DNA of 64,000 bases. It comes from Patescibacteria group bacterium. GTDB taxonomy: Bacteria; Patescibacteriota; Microgenomatia; Levybacterales; UBA12049. Positions 5,455 to 48,085 of the stretch are shown in pieces (position 1 is the stretch's first letter; every line of letters begins with the position of its first letter). The DNA lies in contig DATKGY010000041.1 of the NCBI GenBank assembly GCA_035510535.1, positions 29,493 to 93,492 of the forward strand, read 5' to 3'. The position numbers and the translations under genes were made by a program. The notes under the pieces were generated by a model. It did not search any database. It saw nothing but the letters and a program-made list of their open reading frames with translations, and was not told the DNA's origin.

Positions 5455-5460
5455 TACGTA

Positions 5461-7143: not shown

Positions 7144-7165
7144 GAAAAATTGTGACTTAAAGAAA

Positions 7166-11990: not shown

Positions 11991-11993
11991 TTT

Positions 11994-13295
11994 ATGAAAA
12001 GAACGCAAACATATTGGAAATCACTTTTTAGAAAGAAATATTTACTTTTAGTTTTTGGGATTTTCCTATTTGAATTATTTTTAAGAACTTATAATTTAGG
12101 TTTTAAAGATCCTTTCGGATTTGATCAGGTTGATAATGCCTGGGCTGCTAAAAATATTATCATCAATCATTGGTATCCTTTGGTGGGAATGGTGGCAAAG
12201 ACAGACAGCGGAATTTTTATCGGCCCGGCATACTATTATTTCGCCGCCTTTTTCTATTGGATATATAATTTAAATCCCATTGCTTCCGAAGCGATAGCCG
12301 TTGTCAGTGCAGTTTTTACTTTTTGGACAATATTCTATGTAGTTAAGAAACTATTTTGCGTGGAAATAGCAATTATTGCGCTACTTATTAATACTTTCTG
12401 TTTTAATACGATTCTTTTCGACGGGATACAATGGCCGGTACAATTACTTCCCGCGGTCTCTTTAATAATTTTTTATCTACTTTATAGAGTAATCCTAGGT
12501 GATGTCAAAAAATTAATTCCCTTGGCAATTGCGATCGGGGTTGCTTTAAACTTACATTTTACGGCGATATTTTTTCCAATCATTGTAATACTAACTTTAC
12601 CATTATTCCCCCGGACAAAAGAAACGCTCAAGTACATTTTAATTTCTTTTCCTTGTTTTTTTGTTTGGTTGATTCCCAACTTAGCGTCGTTCTTACTGAA
12701 TAAGACTTCTGCCTCAGCCGGTGGAGGATATCTTACAACTTATTTTTTAGGCTTTCATCTTAGAAGAATGCTGCAGTTAACCGGCGACGCCATAATTCAA
12801 TTTGATCCATACTTGCTTTTGGCTAAGATTAAGCCCCTAAAAGTAATTATCTTACCTGTTTTCATGTTGGTTTATTTATTCAAATCATTTAATTCAGCTG
12901 GAAGGAAATTTGTTTATTTGGTTTTATTATGGTTCTTAATCCCATGGCTGGTATTTACAACTTATGGCGGGGAAATAAGTGATTACTATTTTATTATTAG
13001 CCGATTTGTGGCGCTGATAATACTTTCTTACTTCATTTACTTAGTTTGGAACACTAAAAATATACTCGCGAAACTATTTGTCGTTTTATTTTTGATAATT
13101 TATTGTGCGTACGGATTCATTACCTTTCTTCCCTATAAAGACGAAGGCAGTTTATATAAGCATGAACAAGCGGCAAAACAGGTAGTCGACAGCGGAAGAA
13201 GAATAGAATTCCAAGTGGGTGTACCCGAGTCTTATTTATATTATTATTACATGAGGCAAAAGGGGATAGCGGTATATATATCAAAATATAGATAG
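11994..13295 (+). CDS. GT-C-like polytopic membrane protein, divergent member of family C.
   Basis: 'FDQVDNAWAAKNIIINHWYPLVGMVAKTDSGIFIGPAYYYF' aligns with the GRD...GPxYYY loop of the ORFs at 10455 and 13306. Confidence 0.5.
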   Translation: MKRTQTYWKSLFRKKYLLLVFGIFLFELFLRTYNLGFKDPFGFDQVDNAWAAKNIIINHWYPLVGMVAKTDSGIFIGPAYYYFAAFFYWIYNLNPIASEAIAVVSAVFTFWTIFYVVKKLFCVEIAIIALLINTFCFNTILFDGIQWPVQLLPAVSLIIFYLLYRVILGDVKKLIPLAIAIGVALNLHFTAIFFPIIVILTLPLFPRTKETLKYILISFPCFFVWLIPNLASFLLNKTSASAGGGYLTTYFLGFHLRRMLQLTGDAIIQFDPYLLLAKIKPLKVIILPVFMLVYLFKSFNSAGRKFVYLVLLWFLIPWLVFTTYGGEISDYYFIISRFVALIILSYFIYLVWNTKNILAKLFVVLFLIIYCAYGFITFLPYKDEGSLYKHEQAAKQVVDSGRRIEFQVGVPESYLYYYYMRQKGIAVYISKYR

Positions 13296-13305
13296 AATTT
13301 AACAA

Positions 13306-14805
13306 ATGAAAAAATATCTAGTTGCTTTAAACAATTTTAAGTATCGAAACCCATTATGCTTATGTATTCTTTTTGTCATCGGATTTTTGCTGAGAATTTA
13401 TTTGATTGGCCAGAATTTATTTTTCGGACCGGAGCAGGGAAGAGACATGCTGGTGGTTAAAAGTATTGTCATAGATCATAAACTCGTGCTAATCGGCCCA
13501 ACGACTGCAGTTGAAGGCATTTACCACGGTCCCTTATATTATTACCTTTCCACAATCCCCTTCTTTTTTAGCAAAGGTAATCCCCTTTTTATAGCCTTAT
13601 TTTTTATTTTCCTTAACGCTTTATCCGTATTCTTAGTGTATCTGGTCGGGAAAGAATTGTTTTCCAGAAAAATAGGGTTAATCGCGTCTTTATTTTTTAC
13701 ATTTTCTTTCGGCGCGGTGGTAATGGCGAGATGGTTGTCTCATCCTCCGCTAATTATTCCAGTCTGCTGTTTGTTTTTTCTGTTTTTAGCCAAGTTTATA
13801 AAGGGAAATAATAAATATTTAATTCCAACGGCTATTATTTATGGAGTCGCGACGCAAACGGAATTTTCCAACCTGATAATTTTTACTTTCATTACTTTTT
13901 TTGCGGTGGTTGTTTTTAGGAAAAGATTTCTTGAACAAAAAATAATCAGTTTACTTATTGCGCTTGCTTTGGTGATTTTGCTACCTATATTCAATTTTGT
14001 TCTTTTTGATTTAAGACATAACTTTTTAATTACCAGAAGTCTAATAAAATCTCAGGCGCACAGACCGCAATTTGTAGGTTATTTTTTGCATACCCTAACT
14101 GGCTCAATCTGGCAGTTTATGCAAGTTTTTTCCGATGTGGTTAGTCCGTTGCATTTGTTAGTTGCCGCGGTTATTTTTATCGCCGCCTTTTTTGCGCTGA
14201 TTAAATTAAGAGATAAATATAAAACCGGAACGGCATTGATGTTAATCTGGTTGTTTTCTCCTTTTGTCGCCTTTATTCTTCTTCGCTATAACCCTTTGTA
14301 TCATTATTTTACCGCTTCCATTATTGCAATTATCATCTTGATTGTCGTTCTTGTAGATTATCTCTCATCTCTCAAAAGAGGAGTTGGTTTAATTGCGATA
14401 GGCATATTGGTCGCGTTTAATTTATGGTCACTGCATGCTTATTTGCCTAATAATCTCAATGTATTTTTTCAATCCACTCAGCCCGATTTGAAATATAAAG
14501 ACCAGCAAGCAGTTATACAAAGAATATACAAAGAGGCTAACGGGACACCCTTTTATTATCAGGCTTATACCATTCCTTACTGGATGCAGGATGGGTGGCA
14601 ATATCTTTTCTGGTATTACGGTAAACAGTATGGATATCTTCCCAAGCAAACGAATAAGGGTTTGTTGTTTGTTATAATTCAGGATGACCCAAGCACTAAG
14701 CTTTATCAAACCAATTGGCTTAGGGACACGGTTAGCAAATGGGGAATAGAAGAGAATGAATTTAAATACGGGATATTAACCGTAGAGAAAAGATATGTTC
14801 AATAA
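13306..14805 (+). CDS. GT-C-like polytopic membrane protein, family C paralog.
   Basis: 'FGPEQGRDMLVVKSIVIDHKLVLIGPTTAVEGIYHGPLYYYL'; C-terminal 'WQYLFWYYGKQYGY'. Confidence 0.55.
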   Translation: MKKYLVALNNFKYRNPLCLCILFVIGFLLRIYLIGQNLFFGPEQGRDMLVVKSIVIDHKLVLIGPTTAVEGIYHGPLYYYLSTIPFFFSKGNPLFIALFFIFLNALSVFLVYLVGKELFSRKIGLIASLFFTFSFGAVVMARWLSHPPLIIPVCCLFFLFLAKFIKGNNKYLIPTAIIYGVATQTEFSNLIIFTFITFFAVVVFRKRFLEQKIISLLIALALVILLPIFNFVLFDLRHNFLITRSLIKSQAHRPQFVGYFLHTLTGSIWQFMQVFSDVVSPLHLLVAAVIFIAAFFALIKLRDKYKTGTALMLIWLFSPFVAFILLRYNPLYHYFTASIIAIIILIVVLVDYLSSLKRGVGLIAIGILVAFNLWSLHAYLPNNLNVFFQSTQPDLKYKDQQAVIQRIYKEANGTPFYYQAYTIPYWMQDGWQYLFWYYGKQYGYLPKQTNKGLLFVIIQDDPSTKLYQTNWLRDTVSKWGIEENEFKYGILTVEKRYVQ

Positions 14806-16450
14806 TTTTAAGAAAAAAAATAATTTACTTTTTGTCTTAGTCACGGTTTTTTTATTGCTAGTTCCGATTGTTTCCTTAGCGCATAGCGGTTTGCCGATAA
14901 CGCATGACGGACAGGACCATGTCGCAAGAATCGCCAATTTTTATCAAAATCTTTTGGAAGGTAATTTAATTCCCAGATGGGCTGCCAATCTTAACTGGGG
15001 ATACGGCCACCCGATTTTGGAATTTTTATATCCCCTGCCTTCTTATTTCGCTTCTTTCTTTCATCTGGTTGGTTTTTCTTTGGTTGACGCGACAAAAATT
15101 GTTTATGGTTTGGGGATGGTTTTGTCGTTGTCTTTTATGTTTTTATGGCTTAAGCAATTTTTGGGCAAAGAGCCGGCGCTTCTGGGAGCCTTTTTGTACA
15201 CTTATGCCCCTTATAGATTCGTTGATCTTTATGTTAGAGGAGATATCGGCGAAAATTTGGCTTTTGCTTTTGTACCCCTGATTTTATATTTTATTTTCAA
15301 GCTTTATAAAAAGCCTAAGCTAATATATTCATTGCTGGGTGCTTTGTCTTTAGCGCTTTTGATACTCTCGCATAATGCGATTGCTCTTATAACCGTACCG
15401 TTTATTTTATTTTACGCTATATACCTTATTTGGTTGTCCAAATTCAATAAATCATTAATCATTAATCTTTCATCCTTAATCATTTTCGGTTTTGCCCTGT
15501 CGGCCTTTTTCTGGGCGCCGGCATTGTTAGAGGGTAAATACACACTTCGCAATATCGTTACAAAAGGCACGTATGTAAATAGTTTTGTTAGTTTTAAAGC
15601 TTTGATTTACGGGCCATGGAGCTATGGCGGGAGCGGTGAATTTACTGTTCAATTAGGTATTATTCAATGGCTGGGTTTAATTCTGTCCCCGGTTTTGGCT
15701 ATTCTCTTTTGGTTTAAAAAAGATAAAAGATACCTACTTGTTTTAGCATGTCTTCTGTATACTTTGTTAGCGATATTTTTAATGCTACCGATATCAAATT
15801 TTCTTTGGACAAAAATAATGCTTTTGCAAAACTTCCAATTTCCATGGCGTTTTTTGGCTATTACGGTTCTTTCAACCTCAATATTGGCGGCTTTGCTAAT
15901 TTATAAACTTCCCAAGAAGTTACAGCTTGTCACGGTATTAATTTTAATCGCAGTAGTTTTGTTTATAAGTAAAGATTATCTAAAGGCCAAAGATTATTTG
16001 TATAAACCGGCAGGTTTTTATACAGGAATATATAATGGTACAACCGATACCGGTGAAAGTTCACCTATCTGGTCAGTACGGTTCATGGAGCATGCACCAA
16101 AAGCGCATTTGGAGATGCTTGACGGAAAAGCCACTATTAAGGGAATAAAAAGAACTTCTACGGATCATCTCTATACGGTTAATGTCGCAAAGAGGACTTT
16201 ATTTGAAGAAAACACCCTTTATTTCCCGGGCTGGCAGATAAAAGTCAATAACGTTCCGGTTAGCATTGAATTTCAGGACATGCAATATCGGGGAACGATG
16301 TTATTTATCTTAGATAAAGGAAATTATGTCGTCGAAGCAAAATATTCGGAGACAAAATTACGGTTAATTTGCGACTTAGTATCTTTAATCAGTTTAATAT
16401 CTCTGGCCGGATTATTTGGCTTCGGGTTTGTAAAGACAAAGCTTTCTTAG
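14795..16450 (+). CDS. GT-C-like polytopic membrane protein, family B paralog 2.
   Basis: 'LAHSGLPITHDGQDHVARI...RWAANLNWGYG'; C-terminal 'LYFPGWQIKVNN...FQDM'. Confidence 0.6.
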   Translation: MFNNFKKKNNLLFVLVTVFLLLVPIVSLAHSGLPITHDGQDHVARIANFYQNLLEGNLIPRWAANLNWGYGHPILEFLYPLPSYFASFFHLVGFSLVDATKIVYGLGMVLSLSFMFLWLKQFLGKEPALLGAFLYTYAPYRFVDLYVRGDIGENLAFAFVPLILYFIFKLYKKPKLIYSLLGALSLALLILSHNAIALITVPFILFYAIYLIWLSKFNKSLIINLSSLIIFGFALSAFFWAPALLEGKYTLRNIVTKGTYVNSFVSFKALIYGPWSYGGSGEFTVQLGIIQWLGLILSPVLAILFWFKKDKRYLLVLACLLYTLLAIFLMLPISNFLWTKIMLLQNFQFPWRFLAITVLSTSILAALLIYKLPKKLQLVTVLILIAVVLFISKDYLKAKDYLYKPAGFYTGIYNGTTDTGESSPIWSVRFMEHAPKAHLEMLDGKATIKGIKRTSTDHLYTVNVAKRTLFEENTLYFPGWQIKVNNVPVSIEFQDMQYRGTMLFILDKGNYVVEAKYSETKLRLICDLVSLISLISLAGLFGFGFVKTKLS

Positions 16451-17327: not shown

Positions 17328-18289
17328 AGATTTTAGTTACAGGCGGCGCGGGATACATCGGAAGCTTCATGATAAAGCGTCTTTTGGAGCAAGGCGACGA
17401 GGTGGTAGTGGCGGATAGTTTGGAGAGAGGACATAAGGAAGTAGTTGATCAAAGGGCTAAGCTAATGGTTGGTAATTTGCTTGATAAATCTTTCGTACAG
17501 GAGGTTTTCAGGGATAGATTTCACGCGGTTATTCACTTTGCGGGATTTATTTCAATGGGTGAGTCAATGGAGAATCCTTATTTATATTTTCAAAATAACG
17601 TCTTTAGCTCTCTTAACATTTTGGAACAAATGTCGCAAACCGGTGCTAATAATTTTATATTTTCTTCATCCGCGGGCGTTTATGGAAACCCCGAACAAAT
17701 TCCCATTCCGGAAAGTAGCGTAACAGCGCCAACCAATCCATATGGAGAGAGTAAATTAATGGTCGAGAAGCTTATGGGTTGGTATGGAAAAACCAAAAAA
17801 CTTAATACCGTCGCGTTAAGATATTTTAATGCTGCCGGCGCCTCATTAGATGGCTTAATGGGAGAAGAGCACCTGCCGGAGAGCCACATCATTCCCAAGA
17901 TCATAGAAGCTTTATTGGAAAACAAACCCTTTAATCTTTTTGGCAACGATTATAAAACTAAGGATGGGACTTGCGTTAGGGATTATATACATGTTTTAGA
18001 TTTGGTGGAGGCGCATATCTTGGCGATTAATAAAATACGCACGATGCCTGGTAATTATGTCTATAACGTCGGAACCGGAGCGGGCTTTTCGAATAAGGAG
18101 ATTATAGGAATGGTAGAAAAAGTCTCTGGACAGAAAGTAAATATTCAAAACTCCCCAAGGCGTCCCGGCGACGCGGATGAATTAATTGCTGACCCAACAA
18201 AAATAAAATCAGAATTGGGTTTTAGTCCAAAGTATTCCGACCGTGAGACAATTATTAAAACCGCATGGCAATGGCACAGTAAAAAATGA
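17324..18289 (+). CDS. galE: UDP-glucose 4-epimerase (GalE-type extended SDR).
   Basis: 'MKILVTGGAGYIGSF', 'YGESKLMVE' (YxxxK), GalE-like length. Real start is the ATG at 17324 (ATGA overlap), not the ORF-track start at 17252. Confidence 0.8.
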   Translation: MKILVTGGAGYIGSFMIKRLLEQGDEVVVADSLERGHKEVVDQRAKLMVGNLLDKSFVQEVFRDRFHAVIHFAGFISMGESMENPYLYFQNNVFSSLNILEQMSQTGANNFIFSSSAGVYGNPEQIPIPESSVTAPTNPYGESKLMVEKLMGWYGKTKKLNTVALRYFNAAGASLDGLMGEEHLPESHIIPKIIEALLENKPFNLFGNDYKTKDGTCVRDYIHVLDLVEAHILAINKIRTMPGNYVYNVGTGAGFSNKEIIGMVEKVSGQKVNIQNSPRRPGDADELIADPTKIKSELGFSPKYSDRETIIKTAWQWHSKK

Positions 18290-18813
18290 TAAGAAAAGTT
18301 AAACTTTTTACCTTCCTTATATCAATTTTGTTCTTGTCTGCTCTGCCTTCTTATGCTTCATCAACATACGTCTTGCCATATCCTTCGACCATGCCGGGAA
18401 GCATTTTTTATAAAATTCATTTGGTTGAAGAAACAGTTTTAAGGTATTGGTATTTCGGCGACTTTGGGCAATTTACTTATAATCTTAAAGAATCTGATAA
18501 ATATCTCGTTGAAGCAAAAACACTTTTTGAATATAATCAATATCTGCTAGGCTACGAAGCTTTAAAAAAGTCAGACGTATATTTCAGCAAGACGCTTCCT
18601 TATCTTTTAAAGGCTCAGAAACAAGGTAAGGACATTTCGGCAAATCGGGATTTACTTTCTCAGGCTGCCTTAAAACATAAAGAGGTTTTATTGACGGTAA
18701 AGCAAGAAGTTCCGCCGGTTTTTAATTGGACTCCGGAAAAATCAGCTTTAACCGTACTTAATCTTAAAGCGGCGATAGACGCCTCAATAGCAATAAGAGA
18801 TAAATACCTATGA
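18286..18813 (+). CDS. Small secreted protein of unknown function. Signal peptide followed by an S/T/P-rich segment.
   Basis: 'MIRKVKLFTFLISILFLSALPSYA|SSTYVLPYPSTMPGS'; no TM beyond the signal peptide. Confidence 0.5.
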   Translation: MIRKVKLFTFLISILFLSALPSYASSTYVLPYPSTMPGSIFYKIHLVEETVLRYWYFGDFGQFTYNLKESDKYLVEAKTLFEYNQYLLGYEALKKSDVYFSKTLPYLLKAQKQGKDISANRDLLSQAALKHKEVLLTVKQEVPPVFNWTPEKSALTVLNLKAAIDASIAIRDKYL

Positions 18814-19946
18814 AAAAAATGTTTCTTGGAGTTTACTCAATCTTTTTAGTTTGCTTAGCTATTTTTTCCTATGCTTTTGTCGACCCCAATCTTTTATTTT
18901 TAAGAAAACTCTATACCGGTTTATATGCGACTAACCGGCCTTTTGTAACTTTGGCTTTCATTTTTTTAGTCCTTATTTTTTTTGGATTTTATACTTTATT
19001 CTTATATTGGTTTAGGCAAAAAGTTTTCGGAAATAACGAGTTTAAGTTTATCTTAATAAGCACCGTAGTTTTTCTATTTTTAGCATATCCGGCGATGGTT
19101 TCATACGATATTTTCAATTACGTCGCTACGGCAAAAGCACTGTTTTTTTATCATGAAAATCCGTACATCATTATGCCGATACAATTCTTGCACGATCCTC
19201 TACTATTGTTTATGCAGGCAGCCAATAAAACCGCGCTATACGGACCTTTTTGGATATTTTTGACCGGAATTCCATATTTGTCGGGATTTGGAAATTTCGC
19301 AGTAACTCTTTTTGCTTTTAAGCTTTTTAATACTATTTTTTATTTGGCGTCAATAGCTCTTCTCTATAAAATGTCGAAAAATATTTACTATCTTTCATTT
19401 TTCGCCTTCAACCCCCTGGTTATTTTTGAAACTTTGGTAAGTAGTCATAACGATATTGTGATGATGTTTTTTGCCATTCTTACAATTTACTTCCTAAAGA
19501 ATAAAAAACTGATATTGTCAATTATTTTAATTATTCTCTCGATATTAATTAAATATTCAACCGTATTTTTGCTCCCCGTTATTTTATACGCAATGTTTTA
19601 TCAATTAAGGAATAAAAAACTAGAGTGGGAGAAAATTTTTCTCTGGTTTTCAATTTCGATGCTTGTGATCTTTCTCTTGTCACAAATACGCGAAGAGATA
19701 TATCCCTGGTACGCGATTTGGTTTTTGATTTTCCTTCCTTTTATTCGAAATAAATTAATTAAATATATTTACTTAAGCTTTTCTTTCGGACTCTTATTTA
19801 GATATGTGCCATTTATGCTATTAGGAACTTATTTTGGTACTACTCCTCTAATCAAAAATTTTATGACTTTTATTCCGGTGGGAGTAACGATTTTATTTCT
19901 AGCTCTTAAAAAATTTATATGGCAAAAATCTTCAAACCGATTTTAA
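18810..19946 (+). CDS. Polytopic membrane protein, possibly a small GT-C/mannosyltransferase-like protein.
   Basis: About 10 hydrophobic helices; sits inside the GT-C array; no soluble catalytic motif recognised. Confidence 0.4.
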   Translation: MKKMFLGVYSIFLVCLAIFSYAFVDPNLLFLRKLYTGLYATNRPFVTLAFIFLVLIFFGFYTLFLYWFRQKVFGNNEFKFILISTVVFLFLAYPAMVSYDIFNYVATAKALFFYHENPYIIMPIQFLHDPLLLFMQAANKTALYGPFWIFLTGIPYLSGFGNFAVTLFAFKLFNTIFYLASIALLYKMSKNIYYLSFFAFNPLVIFETLVSSHNDIVMMFFAILTIYFLKNKKLILSIILIILSILIKYSTVFLLPVILYAMFYQLRNKKLEWEKIFLWFSISMLVIFLLSQIREEIYPWYAIWFLIFLPFIRNKLIKYIYLSFSFGLLFRYVPFMLLGTYFGTTPLIKNFMTFIPVGVTILFLALKKFIWQKSSNRF

Positions 19947-21565
19947 TAGTTTTAATTTTCGCATTCATTGCAGGCTTTGCGCTTTTGCATTCCGGGCTTC
20001 CTCCAACGCATGACGGGGAATACCATGTCATAAGATTTATAGAATTTGATAGGGCCTTAAGGGGCGGAAATTTATATCCGAGGTGGGCAGCCGATTTAAA
20101 TTACGGCTATGGTATTCCTTTGTTTAATTATGTCTATCCCTTACCGAATTATTTTTCTTCTTTTCTCCATTTTTTCGGAATAAGCTTTATTGACGCGTTT
20201 AAATTAAACATGTTTACCGCAATACTTTTGGCAGGTTTATTTTTCTATCTATGGACAAAGTCATTCTTTAACGAAAAGGGGGCGCTGGTGGGTTCTGTGT
20301 TCTATCTTTTTTCTCCCTATATGTTTGTCGATACTTACATAAGGGGTTCAGTCGGTGAAGTTTGGGCATTGGCACTTTTTCCGGCATTTTTGTGGGCGGT
20401 TATGGAGTTTATCTATAAGGACAAAAAGATATTCTTACCGGTTTCGGTTGTTTTTTTAGCGCTAATAATTTTTTCTCACAATATTTTAGCTTTAATGTTT
20501 TTTTCTTTTGCCTTTTTATATTCATTACTACTCGTTTATTTATCGAAAAACCCCAAAGCCAATTTTATAAAATGCTTATTTCTATTCGGGCTGGGTCTTG
20601 GTTTGTCGGCAATCTTCTGGCTTCCGGCAATTCTTGAAACAAAATACACAGTAGGTCTGCAAATATTTGATTATAAAAGCAACTTTGTTGATCTCTATCA
20701 ATTGATTGCTCCATCATGGGGATCCGGATTCTATGGAGGGGGACTAGCTAATCAAATGTCTGTTCAAATAGGAATCGCAAACCTTCTGGTGATATTCATA
20801 AGCATTGCAGTTTTTATTAATCTTTTTAGAAAAAAGGATTTCAGAGCAAAGCTTTTAGGATTTTTTCTCGCTTCATTATTTATTGTAATATTTTTGATGT
20901 TAAGGATGTCATTGCCAATATGGGAAAACTTTCCTTTGATGAATTATTTCCAGTTTCCATGGAGATTTTTAAGCCTAACAATTCTGTTTTGCTCGTTTTT
21001 GGCAGCAGGAATTTTTTCCGTAGTTAAACAAAAATTGTTCTTCATAGCAATGCTTTTTCTGCCCATCGTTCTTACTCTTGGCTACATACATCCTGCATAT
21101 TATATGGATAGGATGGATAGCTATTATGCGACAAGACCGAATTTTATTGACGGTACCAACAGTATCGGAAATTCCTTTAATACTCTTTGGTTTAATGCAA
21201 AATCAGTGAGAATTACCGCAAAAATAGAAGATAATAAAAATGTAGCTATAAATAAATCGGCTATTAAGCCCTCAAATTATAAATTTGAAATCATAGTTTC
21301 AAAACCATCAATTTTAACTTTAAATACAGCATACTTTCCCGGTTGGGAAGCGAAAATTGACGGTAAAGCAATTCTGCTTCAAAAAAATAGCGAGGGGCTT
21401 ATTGCGTTTTCCGTGCCTGAGGGAAAACATTCTCTGGAAGTTAATTTTGGCGATACTGCAATCAGATTAATTGCAACACTAATTTCGCTAATTTCGTTTG
21501 TGGCTCTAGTTACGCTATTGATAAAAACATGGTATATTAGAAACAAGCATGAAGATAGCAATTGA
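19919..21565 (+). CDS. GT-C-like polytopic membrane protein, family B paralog 3.
   Basis: 'LLHSGLPPTHDGEYHVIRF...RWAADLNYGYG'; C-terminal 'AYFPGWEAKIDG'. Confidence 0.6.
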   Translation: MAKIFKPILIVLIFAFIAGFALLHSGLPPTHDGEYHVIRFIEFDRALRGGNLYPRWAADLNYGYGIPLFNYVYPLPNYFSSFLHFFGISFIDAFKLNMFTAILLAGLFFYLWTKSFFNEKGALVGSVFYLFSPYMFVDTYIRGSVGEVWALALFPAFLWAVMEFIYKDKKIFLPVSVVFLALIIFSHNILALMFFSFAFLYSLLLVYLSKNPKANFIKCLFLFGLGLGLSAIFWLPAILETKYTVGLQIFDYKSNFVDLYQLIAPSWGSGFYGGGLANQMSVQIGIANLLVIFISIAVFINLFRKKDFRAKLLGFFLASLFIVIFLMLRMSLPIWENFPLMNYFQFPWRFLSLTILFCSFLAAGIFSVVKQKLFFIAMLFLPIVLTLGYIHPAYYMDRMDSYYATRPNFIDGTNSIGNSFNTLWFNAKSVRITAKIEDNKNVAINKSAIKPSNYKFEIIVSKPSILTLNTAYFPGWEAKIDGKAILLQKNSEGLIAFSVPEGKHSLEVNFGDTAIRLIATLISLISFVALVTLLIKTWYIRNKHEDSN

Positions 21566-26849: not shown

Positions 26850-28178
26850 GTGATAAAAAATAAAAATGCTATTCTTAGTTTCAAATTTGTAAGCTTAGCA
26901 TTCGTGCTTATCCTAGGATTCTATCTAAGGTATGATAATCTTTACACTTGGCCGCGCCTTGGCGCAACATTTGACGAGTACGCGTGGACTTGGCTTGGAA
27001 TAAATTTAATTCAGAATCACGTTCCAATGTCTTGGTCCCGTCATCCACAGTATATTTATCGGCAGTCAATTGTTTATCAAAAAACCCCTTTTGTTATAGT
27101 CAAACCGTATCTTGAGCACCCACCGCTTTTTGGATTAGTAGTTGGTTCATTTGCCTTGATTAGTGGTGCGAAGGACATGTATCACGTTAACTTACAAAAT
27201 ATTCGGGGGTTAGCTCTAATATTAGGGGTTTTAAGTATTTTTATGGTTTATGTTTTGGCGGCGGAGGTCTATGGTTTTAGAATTGGCCTTTTGTCGTCAT
27301 TTTTATATGCAATTACGCCGACAATTGTTGTTGGTTCAAGAATTGTTGAAAACGAAAATTTCTTTATCCCATTTTTTCTGCTGGCATTATTTTTTATGTC
27401 TAAATTTATTAAAACAAAAAATCCCTGGTTTAGAAATATTGCGGCTGTGATTTGCGGACTATTAACTTTGGCGAAAGTCCCGTGGATTGCGGGAGCTTTG
27501 GCAATCGTATTAGTACTTTTCTATCTTAAGAAATATAAAGATTCGCTCAAATTTTTGGCAATTGTCTTGCCCATTTTTCTTATCTATTTTGCATACGGGT
27601 ATTATTGGGATTGGAATATATTCTTAGGACTTTGGGGGTTACAATTACAAAGGTTCGACATTACTTTTAATAGTTTTTTTGCTCTTTTTACTTCCCCTTA
27701 TTTGGTGGATAGGTTTATGGTTGACGGTTGGATATATTTTGGCTGGTTCGCGGTCTTTTTGCTTTTGGTTAAGGACATCAAGAAAAATATTTTCGTTATT
27801 TTACCGTTTTTAGCCTATCTCGCAGTTTTTATTTTCGTAATTCCTAACGAACCTTCTCATGGTTGGTACAGATATCCTTTTTATCCATTTTTGACAATTT
27901 CAACCGCGCTTTTCCTAAAAGAATATTTTAATAAGAATTACTTATTGACCTTTTTATTCTTAATATTTACCGGACTTTCAATGCTTCAGCTCAGCTGGGC
28001 TCAAAGTTTAGGATTTTCTTTTCTTGTTTTCAGATTCTTTTTGATTTTGTTTGGCATATCGGCGCTACCATTATTTATTCCTAAAACCAAAAAGCTTTCA
28101 TACTTTACCTCATACGTTTCTTTAGTTATAATCTTTTTCTTAAGCATGTGGTCAATCAAAAATTATAATGAGCAGTAA
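26850..28178 (+). CDS. Small GT39/PMT-like membrane glycosyltransferase, probably with a GTG start.
   Basis: 'LRYDNLYTWPRLGATFDEYAWTWLGINL' (DE motif); polytopic. Confidence 0.6.
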   Translation: MIKNKNAILSFKFVSLAFVLILGFYLRYDNLYTWPRLGATFDEYAWTWLGINLIQNHVPMSWSRHPQYIYRQSIVYQKTPFVIVKPYLEHPPLFGLVVGSFALISGAKDMYHVNLQNIRGLALILGVLSIFMVYVLAAEVYGFRIGLLSSFLYAITPTIVVGSRIVENENFFIPFFLLALFFMSKFIKTKNPWFRNIAAVICGLLTLAKVPWIAGALAIVLVLFYLKKYKDSLKFLAIVLPIFLIYFAYGYYWDWNIFLGLWGLQLQRFDITFNSFFALFTSPYLVDRFMVDGWIYFGWFAVFLLLVKDIKKNIFVILPFLAYLAVFIFVIPNEPSHGWYRYPFYPFLTISTALFLKEYFNKNYLLTFLFLIFTGLSMLQLSWAQSLGFSFLVFRFFLILFGISALPLFIPKTKKLSYFTSYVSLVIIFFLSMWSIKNYNEQ

Positions 28179-28184
28179 TGAAAT

Positions 28185-28877
28185 ATGAAATTTGATAAAT
28201 ATTATTTAAAGAATAAAACCTTTATAACTTTTACCGATATGAGAATAGGTAAAATTATAAAAATAATTATAGATATTTCTCCAAATAGTATTCTAGACGT
28301 TGGGTGTGGCTCGGGATACTTATTAACTAATTTACATAGCAAACTTTCATCCACCAAACTTTATGGAATAGATATCTATCCCAATAAAAAATTGAATAAG
28401 GAAATCATTTACAAACAAGCTGATATAACAGAAGGATTACCTTTTAAATCTAAAGTTTTCGAATGTGTTGTTCTAGGCGAAGTGATTGAGCACGTTCCCA
28501 ATCCGGATTTTCTATTAAGAGAGATAAATAGAGTTTTAAAAAAAGATGGGATATTAATAATATCTACTCCAAATCTTGTCTCCTGGGCAAATAGAGTATT
28601 AGTTTTATTAGGAGTTCAACCTTTATTTACCGAGACGAGTAACGAAGTAAACTTGGGAAGAAAACTCGCAATATTAGGACAGGGCGCGAAGGTTCAGGGA
28701 CACCTGAAGATTTTTACAAGCGATTCTCTGACGGAAATTCTAGAAAGGGAGAAATTTAAGATTATCAATAAACATGGAGTTACCTTTTTCTTTCCTTTCC
28801 CGATATCGCTATTGGATAAATTTTTTACAAAATTTATTACACTTTCATCTGGTTTACTATATGTTGTTAAAAAATAA
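28185..28877 (+). CDS. Class I SAM-dependent methyltransferase.
   Basis: 'ILDVGCGSGY' motif I; 'VVLGEVIEHV'. Confidence 0.8.
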   Translation: MKFDKYYLKNKTFITFTDMRIGKIIKIIIDISPNSILDVGCGSGYLLTNLHSKLSSTKLYGIDIYPNKKLNKEIIYKQADITEGLPFKSKVFECVVLGEVIEHVPNPDFLLREINRVLKKDGILIISTPNLVSWANRVLVLLGVQPLFTETSNEVNLGRKLAILGQGAKVQGHLKIFTSDSLTEILEREKFKIINKHGVTFFFPFPISLLDKFFTKFITLSSGLLYVVKK

Positions 28878-29715
28878 AAAATCTGCAAAAGTAGAAAATC
28901 TAGTATCTGTTATTATCCCGACAAAAAACTCCGAAAAAGTTTTAAGTAGGTGCTTACAAAGCATCAAAAATCAATCGTACAAAAATATAGAAATTATTAT
29001 TATTGATAATAATTCCATTGATAAAACAAAATTAATTGCCAGCAAATTTACAACTCAGGTTTTTAACAAAGGGCCCGAGCGAAGCGCGCAGAGGAACTTC
29101 GGAGTAAGTAAAGCCAAGGGTGAATACTTGTTGTTTATTGACAGCGATATGGTATTGTCAAGAAATGTTGTTGGAGACTGCGTACTTTTAAGTCAGAAGT
29201 CAGAAGTCAGAAGTCGGAAGCCAGGAGGAATTGTAATTCCTGAAGAATCTTTTGGAGAAGGGTTTTGGGCTAGTTGCAAAGCCCTTGAGAGAAGCTTTTA
29301 TCTTAAAGTGAAGTGGATAGAGGCTCCAAGATTTTTCTCCAAAAGTGTGTTTATGGAGCTCAAGGGTTTTGATGAAAAATTAATCAGTGGTGAAGATTGG
29401 GATTTAGGCCAAAAAGCAAAAGCAAAATACAAAGTTTTAAGAATAAGCAGTTTTATTAAACACGACGAAGGAAATCTCTCTCTTGTGCAATTACTTAAGA
29501 AAAAAATGTATTATGGCAAACAAATTACAAATTATTCTTCGAAAGAAGAAAACAATAAAGATTGGAAGAGACAATCGAGTATAGCTAAGAGATATGAACT
29601 ATTTTTTTCAAATCCTCAAAAATTATTCTCTAATCCCATGATCGGCATCGGAATGTTGTTTATGAAAACTTGCGAATTTGCAGTCGTGGGGCTAGGATAT
29701 CTCTTAAAAGAATGA
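28861..29715 (+). CDS. GT2 glycosyltransferase. The start is probably the internal ATG at 28861.
   Basis: 'VSVIIPTKNSEKVL...IIIIDNNSIDKT', 'IDSDM'; contains the in-frame heptamer repeat at 29191-29222. Confidence 0.75.
   Translation: MLLKNKKSAKVENLVSVIIPTKNSEKVLSRCLQSIKNQSYKNIEIIIIDNNSIDKTKLIASKFTTQVFNKGPERSAQRNFGVSKAKGEYLLFIDSDMVLSRNVVGDCVLLSQKSEVRSRKPGGIVIPEESFGEGFWASCKALERSFYLKVKWIEAPRFFSKSVFMELKGFDEKLISGEDWDLGQKAKAKYKVLRISSFIKHDEGNLSLVQLLKKKMYYGKQITNYSSKEENNKDWKRQSSIAKRYELFFSNPQKLFSNPMIGIGMLFMKTCEFAVVGLGYLLKE
29191..29222. repeat. (AGTCAGA)x3 (+1 degenerate) heptanucleotide tandem repeat inside the GT2 at 28861.
   Basis: agtcagaagtcagaagtcagaagtcggaagcc; encodes SQKSEVRSRKP. Confidence 0.9.
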
Positions 29716-43264: not shown

Positions 43265-45403
43265 ATGAAAAAAACATTCAAATACATTCTCTCATTGGCT
43301 ATTATTGCACTCTTAACTTACTCAAGATGGTTTTCGTTTAATATTTTCACAAATGGAGACTGGCTCTTTATCTTCTCCAATTCTCTTGCCAAGTCTTCTT
43401 ATATTTATTCATGGTTCTCATTAGCGGATCTTGGTTCGGTCAATATTATTCTTTGGAGATTTATATTTAGCTTGTCGGAAAGTTTTATTGCCAATCTTGG
43501 TTACTCATTAAATGTATCGGAAAAAATTTTATTTTTTTGGCCCACAATTATTTTCGCAAACCTTTTTGGATATTTGTTGTTTAAGAAAATACTTAAATCG
43601 AATATAGCATCTTTTATTGCTACGATAGTTTTTAATTACAATACCTACTATTTAGTAATAGGTAGCGGATTTTTAATCTACGCAGCGACGCCTTGGCTAC
43701 TGCTGTCTCTTTTAATATTTATGAAAGCTTTAGAAGCAGAAAAAAAATATTTATTTGTATTTTCAGGCCTAACTCTTTTCGTAGCGGGTTCATATGATTT
43801 TAGAATTGCATATATGGGGGTGTTACTTTTATTTGCTTATTCCCTGTACCAAATATTTTTTATTGAAAAGCTTAAGCCATCGGTGAAGGCTTTAAAGAAC
43901 TTGTTTCGTTCCTTTATTACATTTCTTATTTTTGGATTATTAAATGTCTACTGGATTCTGCCGATGCTTAAACTCGGTTCTCTAACGAGCAATATAATTC
44001 TTGGCAGAGGGCTTTTTGGTAGCCAGTTTCTAAACGTTTTATATGCCATAACGCTATTTCATCCTTTCTGGACCGGAACAAAATCGGCGTGGTTTACGAT
44101 AGAACCTATTGCGGTTTATTTCTGGTTAATTCCAATCTTTGCTTTTTTGGGGCTTTGGTTAAACAGACAAAATAAATACGTTTTATTTTTTGGAATCATT
44201 GCATTAGTAGGTATATTTTTAACGAAACAGGAAGCCGATCCGTTTCCCGGTATTTATCCATGGCTTTATACGCACTTAATAGGTTTTAACGCTTTTAGGG
44301 AAGCAAGCAAGTTTTATTTTTTAATTGCCTTAGGCTACGCAGTTTTAGTCGGTGGATTTATTTCGTATATATTTGAGAATTTCAAGAATGTGAGAATTTA
44401 TTTTAAATATGCGCTTGTAATATTTATAGCTGGCTTATTTCTGTGGAACATAAAACCTTTTCTGACGGGTGAAATAGGAGGAATTTTTGTCCCCAGAATC
44501 ATTCCCAGCGATTATCTTATTGTTAAAAATTTTGTTTTAAAAGACAAAGAATATTATAGAACTTTTTGGATTCCCAGCATGTCAACGTGGAGCATATACA
44601 CGACAGATCATCCTTTGATAAACATGACGCTTGCTCTTTCGGAATACAGTTATTGGAGCAATTCGTTTAGAAGTACATCAGCTAGTACGTATACTCCTGC
44701 CGAATTAATGACAATGGCGTTAAAACTTAAGAATTCGGGTAATGTATTAGATATCTCTTCCGTGAAGTATGTTTTTGTTCCAACAAGGGACATAGCAAAC
44801 GACGAAGATTTTTTTGTTTTTTATGGAAAATCAAGACAGTATTATATTGATCAGCTAAACAAATTAGTATACCTTAAGAAAATAAATATTGGCACAAAAG
44901 ATGTTGTTGTCTACGAAAATAAAAATTACAAGCCCCATATATATACGACAGTAGAAAAAGAAACTATTTCAAGAAATGTTGGATATAAAACCATAAATTA
45001 TGAGTTTATAAACCCAACGGAATACACGTTTTCAGTTAAAAACGCTTCTTCTCCTTTCTATCTTAATTTTTCCGAAGGCTATAATCCGCAATGGAATTTA
45101 AGGGTAGGAAGTTTTAGCTGGATAGAAGTGTTGGTAAAGGGCAACTATTTTATTGATGATAAGTACCACTTACAAAATGACGCTAATTTAAATTCTTACT
45201 ATATAAATCCTAATACTATTTGTAAAATACAAAGCTGCAAAATAAATAAAGACGGGAGCTATGATATTTCGGGAACTTTATATTTCAAACCTCAAAGCTA
45301 TGCGTATTTAGGTTTAGTCATTAGCGGTGGTGTTTTGATTTCCGTTCTCTGCTTTCTACTCGTTGTTTTCAGCAAAATTCTATATGAAAGAAAAATTAAA
45401 TAA
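43265..45403 (+). CDS. Large (712 aa) polytopic membrane protein of unknown function, possibly GT-C-like, with a large extracytoplasmic C-terminal domain and a terminal TM helix.
   Basis: Hydrophobicity pattern only. Confidence 0.4.
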   Translation: MKKTFKYILSLAIIALLTYSRWFSFNIFTNGDWLFIFSNSLAKSSYIYSWFSLADLGSVNIILWRFIFSLSESFIANLGYSLNVSEKILFFWPTIIFANLFGYLLFKKILKSNIASFIATIVFNYNTYYLVIGSGFLIYAATPWLLLSLLIFMKALEAEKKYLFVFSGLTLFVAGSYDFRIAYMGVLLLFAYSLYQIFFIEKLKPSVKALKNLFRSFITFLIFGLLNVYWILPMLKLGSLTSNIILGRGLFGSQFLNVLYAITLFHPFWTGTKSAWFTIEPIAVYFWLIPIFAFLGLWLNRQNKYVLFFGIIALVGIFLTKQEADPFPGIYPWLYTHLIGFNAFREASKFYFLIALGYAVLVGGFISYIFENFKNVRIYFKYALVIFIAGLFLWNIKPFLTGEIGGIFVPRIIPSDYLIVKNFVLKDKEYYRTFWIPSMSTWSIYTTDHPLINMTLALSEYSYWSNSFRSTSASTYTPAELMTMALKLKNSGNVLDISSVKYVFVPTRDIANDEDFFVFYGKSRQYYIDQLNKLVYLKKINIGTKDVVVYENKNYKPHIYTTVEKETISRNVGYKTINYEFINPTEYTFSVKNASSPFYLNFSEGYNPQWNLRVGSFSWIEVLVKGNYFIDDKYHLQNDANLNSYYINPNTICKIQSCKINKDGSYDISGTLYFKPQSYAYLGLVISGGVLISVLCFLLVVFSKILYERKIK

Positions 45404-46502
45404 ACGACAAGCTTTTTCGTTAAGAAGTAAATACATCAAATTTGTAATAATTCCCTTATTCTTATTATCGATTTGGATTGGACTCACCTCTTTATATATA
45501 CTACGTTTAGATACTGCATTCTCTCTCCTTTCTTATAATTTGCCGGAAACTGTTTTTACACATTTGCCTCAGGGTAAGTTAGAAAAAGGTGGTTTTGTTT
45601 CCGGTGAGTTTAAGGCCAGGGATAATAACCTCGGTATTCTTTCTTTGCGTTTTCAGACTTTTTTTAGACCGGCCTATGATGACGAAGATCTCCTACTGTT
45701 TCAGATTAAGCAAAAAGATTCTAAGGATTGGTATTACGAAACTATTTACCGCGATGGAACTATTTATGACGTTCCCTTTTTCCCATTCGGTTTTCCAATA
45801 ATTGCCGATTCTAAGAATAAAACGTACGAATTCAAATTAACCTCCCTAAGAGGAAACGACAACAACTCTGTAGCTCTAAGCACAAGATGGCAGAGTATCG
45901 CGGCCAAATACAAATTCACTAAAAGTGAACTTCTGCAAAATAAATTGGAACTATTTGACTTCTCAATTAAGAAATTCGCTAATTCTTTAGGAACTATAGA
46001 TGTTTTATTCTCTTCTTTTGTCTACTTACTACCTTTACTTTTCTACCTAATGCTTTTATCTCCGCCAGGAAGATACATAATGAGAAGATATTTAGAAGAG
46101 CCAACAAAATTTATATGGGAGAAATTGTCTAAGTTTGGCGGATTAAAGCCATTAGGCTTTTTGCCTTCTTCTCATGATCCTTCTCAGCAAACTGTAAGTA
46201 TTTCTTTTGATATGATCTTGCTCGGAGCTGCCTTAGCAGATGGACTTTATTTACAGCTCGGCAATGATTTTGTTTATCTTTTGGTTCCTACTCTTTGGGT
46301 TTTAATTCAGGGATACTTTGGGTTTACTAGTAGGAAAACTTTTCTTGTAGGAATTGCTTTATTGTTATTTTCTCCTATTTTTCTACAGTTTAATCTAGGG
46401 CAAATTGCCGAAAAGATGGGAGTATGGGCTTTTTTGTTTTTAGTGGCAGGAACGATCCAGCTGGTGTGGGAAGTTAAGCAGGAAAAAGTTTCCACAAATT
46501 AG
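45384..46502 (+). CDS. Membrane-anchored hypothetical protein.
   Basis: N-terminal TM 'FVIIPLFLLSIWIGLTSLYIL'; central soluble domain; C-terminal TMs. Confidence 0.4.
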   Translation: MKEKLNKRQAFSLRSKYIKFVIIPLFLLSIWIGLTSLYILRLDTAFSLLSYNLPETVFTHLPQGKLEKGGFVSGEFKARDNNLGILSLRFQTFFRPAYDDEDLLLFQIKQKDSKDWYYETIYRDGTIYDVPFFPFGFPIIADSKNKTYEFKLTSLRGNDNNSVALSTRWQSIAAKYKFTKSELLQNKLELFDFSIKKFANSLGTIDVLFSSFVYLLPLLFYLMLLSPPGRYIMRRYLEEPTKFIWEKLSKFGGLKPLGFLPSSHDPSQQTVSISFDMILLGAALADGLYLQLGNDFVYLLVPTLWVLIQGYFGFTSRKTFLVGIALLLFSPIFLQFNLGQIAEKMGVWAFLFLVAGTIQLVWEVKQEKVSTN

Positions 46503-46535: not shown

Positions 46536-47474
46536 ATGATTTCCGCAGTTGTGCCCGCATTTAACGAGGAAGAAAGTTTTAGTGAGCTTTATGGGGAATT
46601 AACAAAGGTTTTACCTGCGCTCGACAACAACTACGAAATTATATTTATTGACGATGGATCAACGGATAACTCTTTGGATGTTCTTAAAAAAATTGCAGCA
46701 AAAGATAAAAAGGTAAGAATTTTTTCTTTCAGGAAGCATAGAGGTAAGGCAGATGCCTTAATAGCCGGTTTTAGGGTGGCCAAAGGTGATTATATCTTCA
46801 CTATGGATTCAGACTTGGAAGATAAGCCCTCGGAGATGCTAAAGCTCTATAAAAAAATAAAAGAGGGGAATGACGTGGTCGTAGGCTGGAGGAAGAACAG
46901 AAAGCATTCGCTAAGTAGAGTAATTTCTTCAAGATTTTCAAATTTCGTAATAAGTTTATTGTGGGGATTTAAGCTTCATGATCATAATTGTGGCTTAAAG
47001 GTGTTTACAAAAGATGCGGCAAAGTCTCTGCGCCTTTATGGCGGTCTGTATCGATTTATGCTGCTATTGGTTTATCTAAAAGGATTTAAGGTAGCAGAAG
47101 TAGAGATTGTTCACCAAAACAGGAAGTATGGAAAATCGAAATATGGATTTTTTAGGTTATGGAGAGATGTGCCGGATGCGCTAACGATTTTTTTCCTTAC
47201 TAAGTTTGGGGAAAGGCCACTTCATTTTTTTGGATTTATTGGTGGAATAGTTTCCGCAATCGGACTGATTATTCTCACATATTTAGCTGTTCTTCATTTT
47301 CAAGGAGAAAAGATAGGCAACAGGCCACTTCTGACTTATGGGGTACTCTTTGTTGTCGCTGGATTCCAGATTTTATTTACAGGGTTTTTAGCTGATCTTA
47401 TTTTACATATCTCACAAAAGGGCAATCATGAGAATGAAGTACCTGCTGAAATGTTTAAATATAAAACCGAATGA
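46536..47474 (+). CDS. GT2 polyprenol-phosphate glycosyltransferase (GtrB/ArnC-like) with two C-terminal TM helices.
   Basis: 'ISAVVPAFNEEESF...IIFIDDGSTDNS', 'MDSDLED'; C-terminal helices. Confidence 0.85.
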   Translation: MISAVVPAFNEEESFSELYGELTKVLPALDNNYEIIFIDDGSTDNSLDVLKKIAAKDKKVRIFSFRKHRGKADALIAGFRVAKGDYIFTMDSDLEDKPSEMLKLYKKIKEGNDVVVGWRKNRKHSLSRVISSRFSNFVISLLWGFKLHDHNCGLKVFTKDAAKSLRLYGGLYRFMLLLVYLKGFKVAEVEIVHQNRKYGKSKYGFFRLWRDVPDALTIFFLTKFGERPLHFFGFIGGIVSAIGLIILTYLAVLHFQGEKIGNRPLLTYGVLFVVAGFQILFTGFLADLILHISQKGNHENEVPAEMFKYKTE

Positions 47475-48043
47475 AGATAGGCATTGATATTTCTCAATTG
47501 GCGTATCCGGAAACGGGAGTGGCGAATTATTTAGAAAATCTTGTTGAAAATTTAGTTCAAGTAGATTCGGAGAACGAGTATATACTTTTTTACTCCTCGT
47601 TAAGAAAAAATTTTCAATTTTCAATTTTCAATTTTCAATCAAATCCAAATGTTTCAATTAAACAATTTAGGATACCGCCGACGGCTTTAGATATTCTTTG
47701 GAACAAGTTACATATTCTTCCGATAGAAAATTTTATTGGCGAGGTCGATATTTTTATCACTTCCGACTGGACAGAGCCGCCCGCCAAAAAAGCCAAGAAA
47801 GCAACGATTCTTTACGATCTCATGATTTACAAATATCCCGAAGAATCTCACCACCAGACCCAGTTCAATCCTCTTAAAATGATTATCTCTCCGAACGTTG
47901 TTGAAGTTCAAAAGCGAAAATTACAATGGGTAAAGAAAGAGTCGCAAAGAATTTTGTGTATTTCTGAAGCTACAAAAAGAGATGCACAGGAGATTTTGGG
48001 AATTCCTCAAAGCAAGCTAGCGGTAATTTACCCGGGCTTCTAG
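47471..48043 (+). pseudogene. Truncated GT4 glycosyltransferase: N-terminal Rossmann domain only (190 aa), ending where the C-domain should begin.
   Basis: 'MKIGIDISQLAYPETGVANYLENL' is paralogous to the N-termini of the GT4s at 21549, 49062 and 62221. The ORF stops at 'AVIYPGF', with no donor-binding half. Confidence 0.55.
47611..47638. repeat. (TTTTCAA)x4 heptanucleotide tandem repeat inside the GT4 fragment.
   Basis: ttttcaattttcaattttcaattttcaa; encodes NFQFSIFNFQ. Confidence 0.9.
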
Positions 48044-48046
48044 ACA

Positions 48047-48085
48047 TATCTGGAAATATTTGGTAATATCTGGAAGTATATGGAA
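48047..48085. promoter_or_regulatory. Two tandem ~19-nt direct repeats (ATATCTGGAARTATWTGG) overlapping the fic start codon. Candidate operator or insertion junction.
   Basis: atatctggaaatatttggta / atatctggaagtatatggaa read directly. Confidence 0.4.

Follow-up and report, generated by a model that had tools for sequence, protein, structure and literature searches.

Do short tandem repeats of a heptanucleotide unit, lying in frame inside glycosyltransferase genes, act as slipped-strand switches of the cell surface, or are they mutable tracts that selection merely holds in frame? The question is raised by a 64-kb stretch of a Patescibacteria genome (contig DATKGY010000041.1, positions 29,493 to 93,492), a glycan-biosynthesis cluster with a G+C content of about 36%; the whole stretch of 64,000 nucleotides (nt) is called the window below. 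Patescibacteria are tiny, mostly uncultured bacteria that attach to other cells and spend large gene clusters on surface glycans. An earlier note on the window had proposed that heptanucleotide repeats in several of its glycosyltransferase (GT) genes are candidate phase-variation switches. Our analysis confirms the repeats, and period 7 turns out to be the dominant tandem-repeat class in related loci, with a marked preference for GT genes. At the level of consensus sequences they do not behave like an established contingency locus, and we consider them rather probably to be hypermutable slippage microsatellites under frame-preserving selection.

Heptanucleotide arrays in the window

Tandem Repeats Finder (TRF), together with direct reading of the sequence, locates six period-7 arrays in the window. 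The arrays and the genes that carry them are as follows, with matches as given by TRF.

29190-29224, + strand: (AAGTCAG)x5.0 array, 89% matches, with a perfect run at 29190-29215
28861-29715, + strand: GT2 glycosyltransferase of 284 amino acids (aa), Pfam PF00535, with the preceding array just past its DSD (DxD) motif
47609-47639, + strand: (AATTTTC)x4.4 array of 31 nt, 100% matches, encoding NFQFSIFNFQ at codons 47-57
47471-48043, + strand: short GT4 protein of 190 aa, N-domain only, Pfam PF13439 (HUD09802.1, VMR77_03300)
58834-58865, + strand: (CAATTTC)x4.6 array (TTTCCAA/TCTCCAA), 92% matches, encoding ISNLQFPISN
58692-59585, + strand: GT2 glycosyltransferase of 297 aa (Pfam), with the preceding array between DNASTD and NLGFSKANN
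10466-10497, + strand: (AATCAAA/ACTCAAA) array of period 14, that is 2x7 with two diverged heptamers, 2.3 copies, 94% matches, at codons 4-14 of a GT-C gene
10455-11990, + strand: that gene, a GT-C (PMT_2) membrane glycosyltransferase, Pfam PF13231
15450-15484, + strand: imperfect (AATCATT)x5.0 array, 82% matches, missing from the earlier note's list
14795-16450, + strand: GT-C (PTPS_related/PMT_2) membrane glycosyltransferase carrying it (Pfam)
63882-63900, + strand: weak, short (AATGGCA)x2.7 array in the inter-domain linker of a GT4 gene

Among them, the array at 29190-29224 consists of 3.7 perfect AAGTCAG units followed by AAGTCGG and AAGCCAG, and encodes SQKSEVRSRKP; its gene has the same start codon called in public assemblies. 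In the AlphaFold model of this GT2 protein (mean predicted local distance difference test score, pLDDT, of 87) the array makes up the C-terminal end of helix 103-116 and the loop 117-120, with a pLDDT of 76 against 93-96 nearby; no other block of the N-terminal catalytic half is modelled with so little confidence. In the array at 15450-15484 a perfect run of at least three units would make an in-frame TAA. The GT4 gene with the array at 63882-63900 starts near 63299 and continues beyond the window end, and the position of its array (codon ~194) is the main GT4 hot spot of the relatives described below. The sequence AATGGCAAATAGCA at 63845-63858, a diverged AATGGCA copy 24 nt upstream in the same linker, suggests an older, interrupted array.

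The basic observation of the earlier note holds. Heptamer arrays do lie inside GT2, GT4 and GT-C genes, with about 4.4-5 units and above the level of shuffled sequence, and all six are read through in frame at their present copy numbers. A change by one unit of 7 nt shifts the frame, as had been stated: simulated alleles with one or two units more or fewer truncate each protein, while alleles changed by three units leave each intact. Thus the arrays share with the neuO gene of Escherichia coli the property that three units make one 7-residue peptide repeat and that the open reading frame (ORF) is intact only at frame-compatible copy numbers, and with phase-variable loci in general that a simple sequence repeat (SSR) with a unit not divisible by 3 lies inside an ORF, here in six cases inside GT ORFs. 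The tracts are short (4.4-5 units, 31-35 nt), and neuO alleles reach down to 3 units (PMC13001214).

The excess over chance is clear. The window contains 18 perfect period-7 repeats of at least 2 copies, compared with a mean of 6.3 and a maximum of 12 in 100 dinucleotide-preserving shuffles, and 5 of at least 2.5 copies, compared with 0.06; periods 8 and 9 give 1 each. Arrays of at least 4 units have an expected number of 0 in shuffles that preserve local composition. The two-copy repeats of 14-15 nt are about at chance level, and several of them lie in T-rich GT-C codons (13597-15732). We also considered TTTTCAA and TTTCCAA, the units of two unrelated GT genes, as one shared element, and rejected this, as TTYYCAATTYYCAA occurs in the window only at those two arrays and the units are otherwise diverse.

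Period 7 in related genomes

We collected 160 loci (2.14 Mb) round homologues of the two array-bearing GT2 genes, among the matches listed, from species-representative genomes and metagenomes. TRF was run with a score of at least 40, arrays were made non-redundant, and local dinucleotide shuffles served as control. The counts by period are as follows.

Period 6: 2 arrays, shuffle mean 0.6
Period 7: 73 arrays, shuffle mean 0.8
Period 8: 16 arrays, shuffle mean 1.6
Period 9: 19 arrays, shuffle mean 4.4
Period 10: 17 arrays, shuffle mean 8.4
Period 11: 20 arrays, shuffle mean 13.0
Period 12: 46 arrays, shuffle mean 17.2
Period 14: 49 arrays, shuffle mean 17.0

Period 7 is therefore the dominant tandem-repeat class in these related low-GC Patescibacteria loci, standing above both its neighbour periods and the shuffles as in other reported cases of heptameric SSR over-representation. 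The density of period-7 and period-14 arrays falls with G+C content, from 11.2 per 100 kb at G+C below 0.36 to 5.4 at 0.36-0.42 and 1.1 above 0.42, and the window, with 7.8 per 100 kb, is typical for its group.

By a start-to-stop ORF test, 109-113 of the 127 arrays of the relatives sit in ORFs that read through them (86% intragenic), and 14-18 are intergenic. Coding arrays show a sharp maximum of length at 31-32 nt (41 of 109 have ~4.5 units), and a small number measure 46-58 nt. Perfect runs become fewer between 14 nt and 21-27 nt, after which the counts rise in a distinct peak at exactly 31 nt, a length that corresponds to 10 nt plus three units (seven codons). The units themselves are diverse, with 40 distinct ones among 69 coding period-7 arrays; some recur (AATTTTC, AATTTCC, AAATTTC), and their composition on the coding strand is A 46%, T 32%, C 14% and G 8%. 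Units that are free of stop codons in all three frames make up 68%, compared with 43% expected.

A few other arrays were observed in these loci. L038 contains long intergenic (AAGTCAA)x7.6 arrays twice (L038:1700-1809 and L038:19248-19299), the first of which directly adjoins an inverted counterpart, (AACTTTT)x7.7, with which it would fold into a long hairpin. An intergenic (AGGGGTT)x4.3 array at L070:6237-6266, on a low-GC contig of the candidate phyla radiation (CPR), is G-rich and telomere- or G-quadruplex-like, and resembles the GGGGAYT/GGGAATC class of Nostoc and Xanthomonas. The cultured Patescibacterium Minisyncoccus archaeiphilus PMX.108 has a (TTTATTA)x6.0 array inside an ORF (L072:20218-20255).

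Concentration of arrays in glycosyltransferase loops

We classed the 2112 ORFs of the relatives' loci by local iterative profiles and permuted the array positions within each locus. Arrays lie in GT ORFs in 94 of 113 cases, compared with 65.1 ± 4.8 expected, and none of 20000 permutations reached 94. By class, GT4 has 61 arrays against 30.2 expected and GT2 has 22 against 16.5, while GT-C has 11 against 18.5 and all other genes together 19 against 47.8. A cross-check with Pfam finds a GT4 domain in 39 of 89 array-bearing ORFs, compared with 18 of 100 length-weighted control ORFs. The enrichment that the earlier note had named as a check is thus present in the relatives, and the arrays are not compositional noise spread evenly over housekeeping genes, although a few lie in the ORFs of leucyl-tRNA synthetase (LeuRS), an EF-G-like protein, ribosomal protein L13 and MraW. 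In the window alone all six arrays lie in GT genes, which is marginal (p ~0.04) given that GT coding sequence takes up about 58% of it.

Within the families the arrays concentrate in few places. For GT4, 27 of the 61 arrays stand at one profile position, the inter-domain linker, and another 13 occupy the beta2-beta3 loop; for GT2, 14 of 22 share one profile position, the loop after DNxSxD. The pattern of the cyanobacterial short tandemly repeated repetitive (STRR) sequences and the Xanthomonas heptamers, that is few different units, mostly intergenic and in many copies, is not found among the arrays of the relatives, with 40 units in 69 arrays, 86% of arrays intragenic and about 4.5 units each.

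Age of the arrays and concerted change of units

The arrays are old. Orthologues of the GT2 gene at 28861 in L032 and L035 (69% aa identity) match its loop in length and build it from five degenerate copies of the AAGTCAG unit at the same codons, as follows.

Window: AAGTCAG three times, AAGTCGG, AAGCCAG
L035: ATGTCAG, AAATCAG, AAGTCAG, AAATCAG, GAGTTGG
L032: AAATCAT, AAGTCAG, AAGTCAT, AGATCAG, AAAATCG

The array at 15450 was compared with a GT-C gene of L032, but the two genes are 27% identical and are not orthologues, so that this comparison is uninformative.

The short GT4 gene gives the fullest record. It had been taken for a GT4 fragment; actually it is a complete member of a conserved family of ~190 aa that has only the GT4 N-domain, with 2117 homologues of 177-198 aa, and the six "short" array-bearing GT4 ORFs of the relatives all belong to this family. 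Its members normally stand directly upstream of a full-length GT4, and the two may form a split or two-component GT-B enzyme. Orthologues are found at the following places.

L131:947-1486
L130:1049-1579
L117:1184-1717
L127:507-1037
L126:922-1455

Six short-GT4 orthologues were compared as DNA. Their gene identity is 0.65-0.73 and their third-position identity only 0.41-0.53, which means saturation at synonymous sites. Even so, codons 46-57 are heptamer-periodic at the DNA level in all six and of essentially equal length, with a single extra codon in one of the six. Three of the six carry perfect or near-perfect (AATTTTC)4.4, while the units of the others are AATTTCC/AATTTCT (L117), AGTATCG/AGTATCC (L127) and AAAGTTA/AAAGTTC (L126). 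The window and L131 share an identical run of 36 nt, in which L130 has one mismatch, at a third-position identity elsewhere of 0.41-0.45. The same periodicity is seen in 120 short-GT4 orthologues when the loop tripeptide is compared with the residues 7 positions downstream: all three residues match in 31 and two of three in 32 (63 in total), and offsets of 6, 8 and 9 score 0 almost throughout. The perfect matches are of eight kinds (NFQ, KLK, DLG, NFK, NLK, DLR, KIQ and NIK).

For the GT2 gene at 58692 the earlier note had suggested that the repeat looks inserted. This is wrong or incomplete: the arrays did not arise by recent insertion, since orthologues have them at the same codons. Its homologues, including those 83% identical, were compared by protein alignments. 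Some homologues of other lineages encode ISNFQFPISNF, the translation of (AATTTCC)n, and others have loops built of different heptamer units (AATCTTA x5.3 in L130, CATAATA x4.4 in L170, CAATTWC x5 in L199), while in homologues with the standard short loop the period-7 signal is absent. Two GT2 genes with ~89% DNA column identity (P0150 and P0397) have wholly different loops with a length gap of 6 nt; in one such pair, L199:1056-1949 and L197:2679-3560 (~89% identical), (CAATTWC)x5 faces a degenerate loop across this gap, which may be a heptamer gain with a compensating 1-nt change.

Judged from these alignments, periodicity that is kept while the unit changes, together with perfect arrays at saturated synonymous sites, is the apparent signature of ongoing gain and loss of units under selection on total length. 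The concerted evolution of units at orthologous sites points to continuing slippage, and we infer the turnover from it. In a homogenised array each base of the unit serves codon positions 1, 2 and 3, so that the consensus has no silent sites, which would explain why the unit changes slowly in some lineages.

Tests for switching

Variation of copy number between strains would be expected of a switch. The identical window sequence is found in several metagenome assemblies from ENA, JGI and Logan, and assemblies of the same population were found via neighbour genes; all of them are consensus sequences of one population. The array at 47609 has 31 nt in 6 of 6 independent assemblies and that at 29190 is identical in 8 of 8, the window counted in both, so no copy-number variant appears among them. 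The array at 58834 is also identical in five assemblies, again with the window, but its assemblies were selected by exact match to the protein that bears the array, which makes this set uninformative. We further searched ~15 billion predicted proteins for 19 predicted alleles of four arrays (-3 to +3 units) and found none, while the reference allele is present. In six clusters of the short GT4 family at 90% identity or above, the complete members of each cluster have the same length and their loops are almost invariant: 187 aa in nine, 191 aa in seven, 190 aa in three members of each of three clusters, and 177 aa in two. The sixth cluster also has one partial sequence of 134 aa.

Frames were examined in the 160 related loci. 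None of the 94 arrays in GT ORFs is out of frame, which sets a 95% upper bound of ~3% OFF, and no split GT gene is evident at the arrays outside ORFs, which lie between complete genes. Two features of phase-variable populations, differences in copy number between strains and the presence of both ON and OFF alleles among genomes, are thus not seen at the consensus level. With constant copy number, no variant alleles and 0 of 94 arrays OFF, compared with the behaviour of neuO, the arrays do not behave at this level like an established contingency locus.

Evidence for and against a switch

The explanation that we favour, by no means a certain one, is that these arrays are hypermutable heptanucleotide microsatellites arising by slippage, filtered by the frame and by the tolerance of loops, rather than switches maintained with an appreciable share of OFF alleles. 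Low-GC Patescibacteria of the Microgenomates or Levybacteria-like kind would strongly over-produce 7-nt slipped-strand microsatellites. An intragenic array would survive only if its total length keeps the frame, typically ~31 nt as a 10-nt seed plus three units, and if the encoded 7-residue-periodic peptide falls in a tolerant loop. In GT2 this would mean the stretch that follows DxD or DNxSxD, in GT4 the inter-domain linker or the beta2-beta3 loop, and in GT-C the loops or N-terminal tails. An array that has taken hold would then stay at the same codon for very long times, during which unit gain and loss keep it periodic and spread unit changes to all copies, while selection presumably holds length and frame. 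Slippage turnover of this kind means that the arrays could in principle give frameshifted (OFF) variants at low frequency. Several observations weigh against this explanation. The intergenic arrays of the relatives likewise cluster near 4-4.5 units (n=18), so that the frame constraint alone is no explanation of the preferred length. The marked preference for GT4 and GT2, together with perfect arrays kept over saturating divergence, is also expected from second-order selection for mutability. The explanation also leaves the preference for 7 nt unaccounted for. Logan contigs (k=31) from three runs (SRR8693975, SRR7549125 and SRR6960558) end inside or at arrays. In the 47609 array, L009 and L011 share the base at which they stop, and L020 starts within the same array; L007 runs 4 nt beyond the perfect run at 29190. 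Assemblies made with several k values cross every array, and when a k=31 graph was simulated from the reference allele only, it did not branch at the arrays. The head of L020 is exactly as predicted by an allele of at least 5.4 units, while the other contig ends are 1-5 nt off any simple mixture of units. The breaks suggest some length heterogeneity in the reads, which is a lead and not evidence. Two closer interpretations of them were rejected: the end of L007 is not an exact match to a +1-unit allele, since the k=31 simulation puts the predicted break 4 nt earlier, and the ends of L009 and L011 do not fit the simulation either, with a predicted tail of R30 against an observed R25.

The main alternative is that the arrays are true contingency loci, selected for mutability, in which infrequent steps of one unit turn GT genes OFF and ON, giving an episymbiont a more varied surface glycan, for example against phage or in host attachment. 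This is possible but in our judgement not likely. It draws on the unit that is not a multiple of 3, on the location in accessory glycan genes, on the GT enrichment (94 against 65 expected), on perfect arrays at saturated synonymous sites whose units co-vary within arrays, and on the heptanucleotide switching of neuO as precedent (PMC13001214). Moreover, homogenisation by single-unit steps must go through OFF intermediates; the +6 nt loop gap between the ~89%-identical genes P0150 and P0397, which fall in one protein cluster at 90% or above, looks compensated, as do gaps of +6, +9 and +15 nt relative to short-loop homologues; and the head of L020 fits. The other side holds the equal copy number in every independent assembly, 0 of 19 predicted alleles in 15 billion proteins, 0 of 94 GT arrays out of frame (below ~3% OFF, compared with 65.6% OFF for neuO), constant lengths in the clusters at 90% identity or above, tracts of 4-5 units at the low end for appreciable slippage rates, and arrays in essential genes (LeuRS, L13), where switching is useless. 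Of the switch proposed in the earlier note, the part that stands is the 7-nt unit, the frame, the enrichment in GT genes and the slippage implied by concerted units; the part that does not is variation itself, with no variant copy number, allele or OFF array found, and the strain-level differences it anticipated are replaced by equal lengths. A broader form of the same idea is a conserved "phasome" in low-GC, Levybacteria-like Patescibacteria, with dozens of GT genes per genome bearing arrays at fixed orthologous codons under second-order selection, switching OFF and ON at low frequency and leaving concerted units as the footprint of these cycles; this we consider rather unlikely. It is improbable that selection acts on the peptides themselves (NFQFSIF, ISNFQFP, SQKSEVR and others), as loops that are structural or interact with membrane, and that DNA periodicity is a by-product. 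In favour of this, the short GT4 family strongly conserves the length of its loop, many of the peptides are aromatic or amphipathic, and literature cited in PMC13001214 has neuO repeats modulating enzyme activity; yet orthologues have wholly different peptides (NFQFSIFNFQ, SIEYPVSSIQL, KVKSSKVKVQG) with only the periodicity kept, and the conserved or co-varying synonymous third positions in arrays are unexplained by selection on protein. Even less credible is a sequence-specific DNA or RNA element, such as a binding site, a recoding signal or a small mobile repeat like the cyanobacterial STRR, TAACTGA and GGGAATC heptamers. Heptamer families with proposed regulatory roles exist (PMC4692102, PMC4679880) and some units recur here, but the diversity of units (40 among 69 coding arrays) argues against it, as do the 86% of arrays that are intragenic and the units that differ between orthologues, and no terminal or flanking signature was seen at the arrays. 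The two-copy repeats of 14 nt that lie in T-rich codons of membrane proteins (13597-15732) are near chance and agree with AT-rich compositional noise. For arrays of at least 4 units, however, noise or an assembly artefact is refuted and has a negligible probability, since none is expected in local-composition shuffles and different assemblers gave the identical sequence in independent assemblies.

Gene content of the window

The proteins of the window are deposited under "MAG TPA: Patescibacteria group bacterium" with locus tags VMR77_, and Levybacteria are their nearest named relatives. Among the recovered GTDB representative genomes the closest match to the window has 63% identity, and the species of the window is not one of them. 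According to Pfam and local profile searches the window has about 30 GT genes, namely ~13 GT-C, 8 GT2 and 8 GT4, besides sugar-nucleotide enzymes, methyltransferases, flippases, an MBOAT protein and a Fic/DOC gene. The GT-C-type (PMT_2 / PTPS_related) paralogues, up to 13, lie at 2099-16450, 19919-21565, 26850-28178, 51665-54841 and 55934-57379, and nine of them form one uninterrupted row. The ORF at 51665-54841 (1058 aa) has no Pfam match and fits the local GT-C profile. Further ORFs of the glycan cluster without a Pfam match have 712, 379, 465, 175 and 378 aa (43265-45403, 45363-46502, 33-1430, 18286-19946).

The Fic/DOC gene, which also encodes a helix-turn-helix domain (48080-49057), lies between the short GT4 and its partner GT4; at the orthologous loci of L131, L130 and L117 there is no gene between the two. 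Immediately upstream of it, overlapping the start codon, stands a direct repeat of 10/20 nt, ATATCTGGAA ATATTTGGTA ATATCTGGAA GTATATGGAA (48046-48087), which may be a putative operator. A Fic gene is also found 3' of the orthologue of the GT2 at 58692 in L197 (3722-4603) and in L198.

Comparison with known systems

A full-text literature search gave no relevant report of such arrays, of tandem repeats or SSRs, or of phase variation in Patescibacteria or the CPR. Should the arrays be mutable, these organisms would possess an inherent means of surface variation. Even if they never switch, they form an unusually clean bacterial coding microsatellite, with a codon fixed family-wide, units that change in concert and constant length, which is useful for studying slippage bias as well as the pitfalls of gene calling and assembly in these genomes.

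The closest known case is the AAGACTC variable-number tandem repeat of neuO, the capsule O-acetyltransferase gene of E. coli K1, which has 3-53 repeats and is OFF in 65.6% of 64 complete genomes (PMC13001214). The Patescibacteria arrays resemble it in having a 7-nt unit in the coding sequence of a surface-glycan-modifying enzyme, full length only at a fitting count, and a 7-residue peptide repeat for every three units. They differ in having 4.4-5 units, a copy number that is the same across strains and even species, and no OFF array among the 94, and in being known from sequence alone. Heptameric SSRs are over-represented in many bacteria, for which a bias of slippage related to the polymerase footprint has been proposed, and the heptamers studied so far (GGGAATC in Xanthomonas, GGGGAYT in Nostoc, the cyanobacterial STRR and TAACTGA in Beggiatoa) are mainly intergenic with one or a few units (PMC4692102). 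As in this Mrazek-type excess, period 7 stands above its neighbouring periods in Patescibacteria too, whereas here 86% of the arrays are intragenic, in frame, built of ~40 A/T-rich units and tied to loops of GT families.

These features recall the classical contingency loci as well. The SSR loci in lipooligosaccharide (LOS) and capsule glycosyltransferase genes of Haemophilus, Neisseria and Campylobacter have tetranucleotide or homopolymer tracts that are long, polymorphic among isolates and often OFF. Common to both are an intragenic position, a unit that is not a multiple of 3, a place in glycan-biosynthesis genes and perfect tracts that are kept, while the Patescibacteria arrays have another unit length, are short and monomorphic, and are always ON at the consensus level. 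The hmw1A and hmw2A genes of H. influenzae have many-copy 7-bp repeats in their promoters that tune transcription in a graded way; there too a heptanucleotide tandem repeat belongs to a surface factor, whereas the Patescibacteria arrays lie in coding sequence. Compared with all these systems, what appears to be new is the Patescibacteria lineage, the intragenic, frame-quantised form of ~31 nt, the clustering in particular GT4 and GT2 loops, and the family-wide conservation with concerted units.

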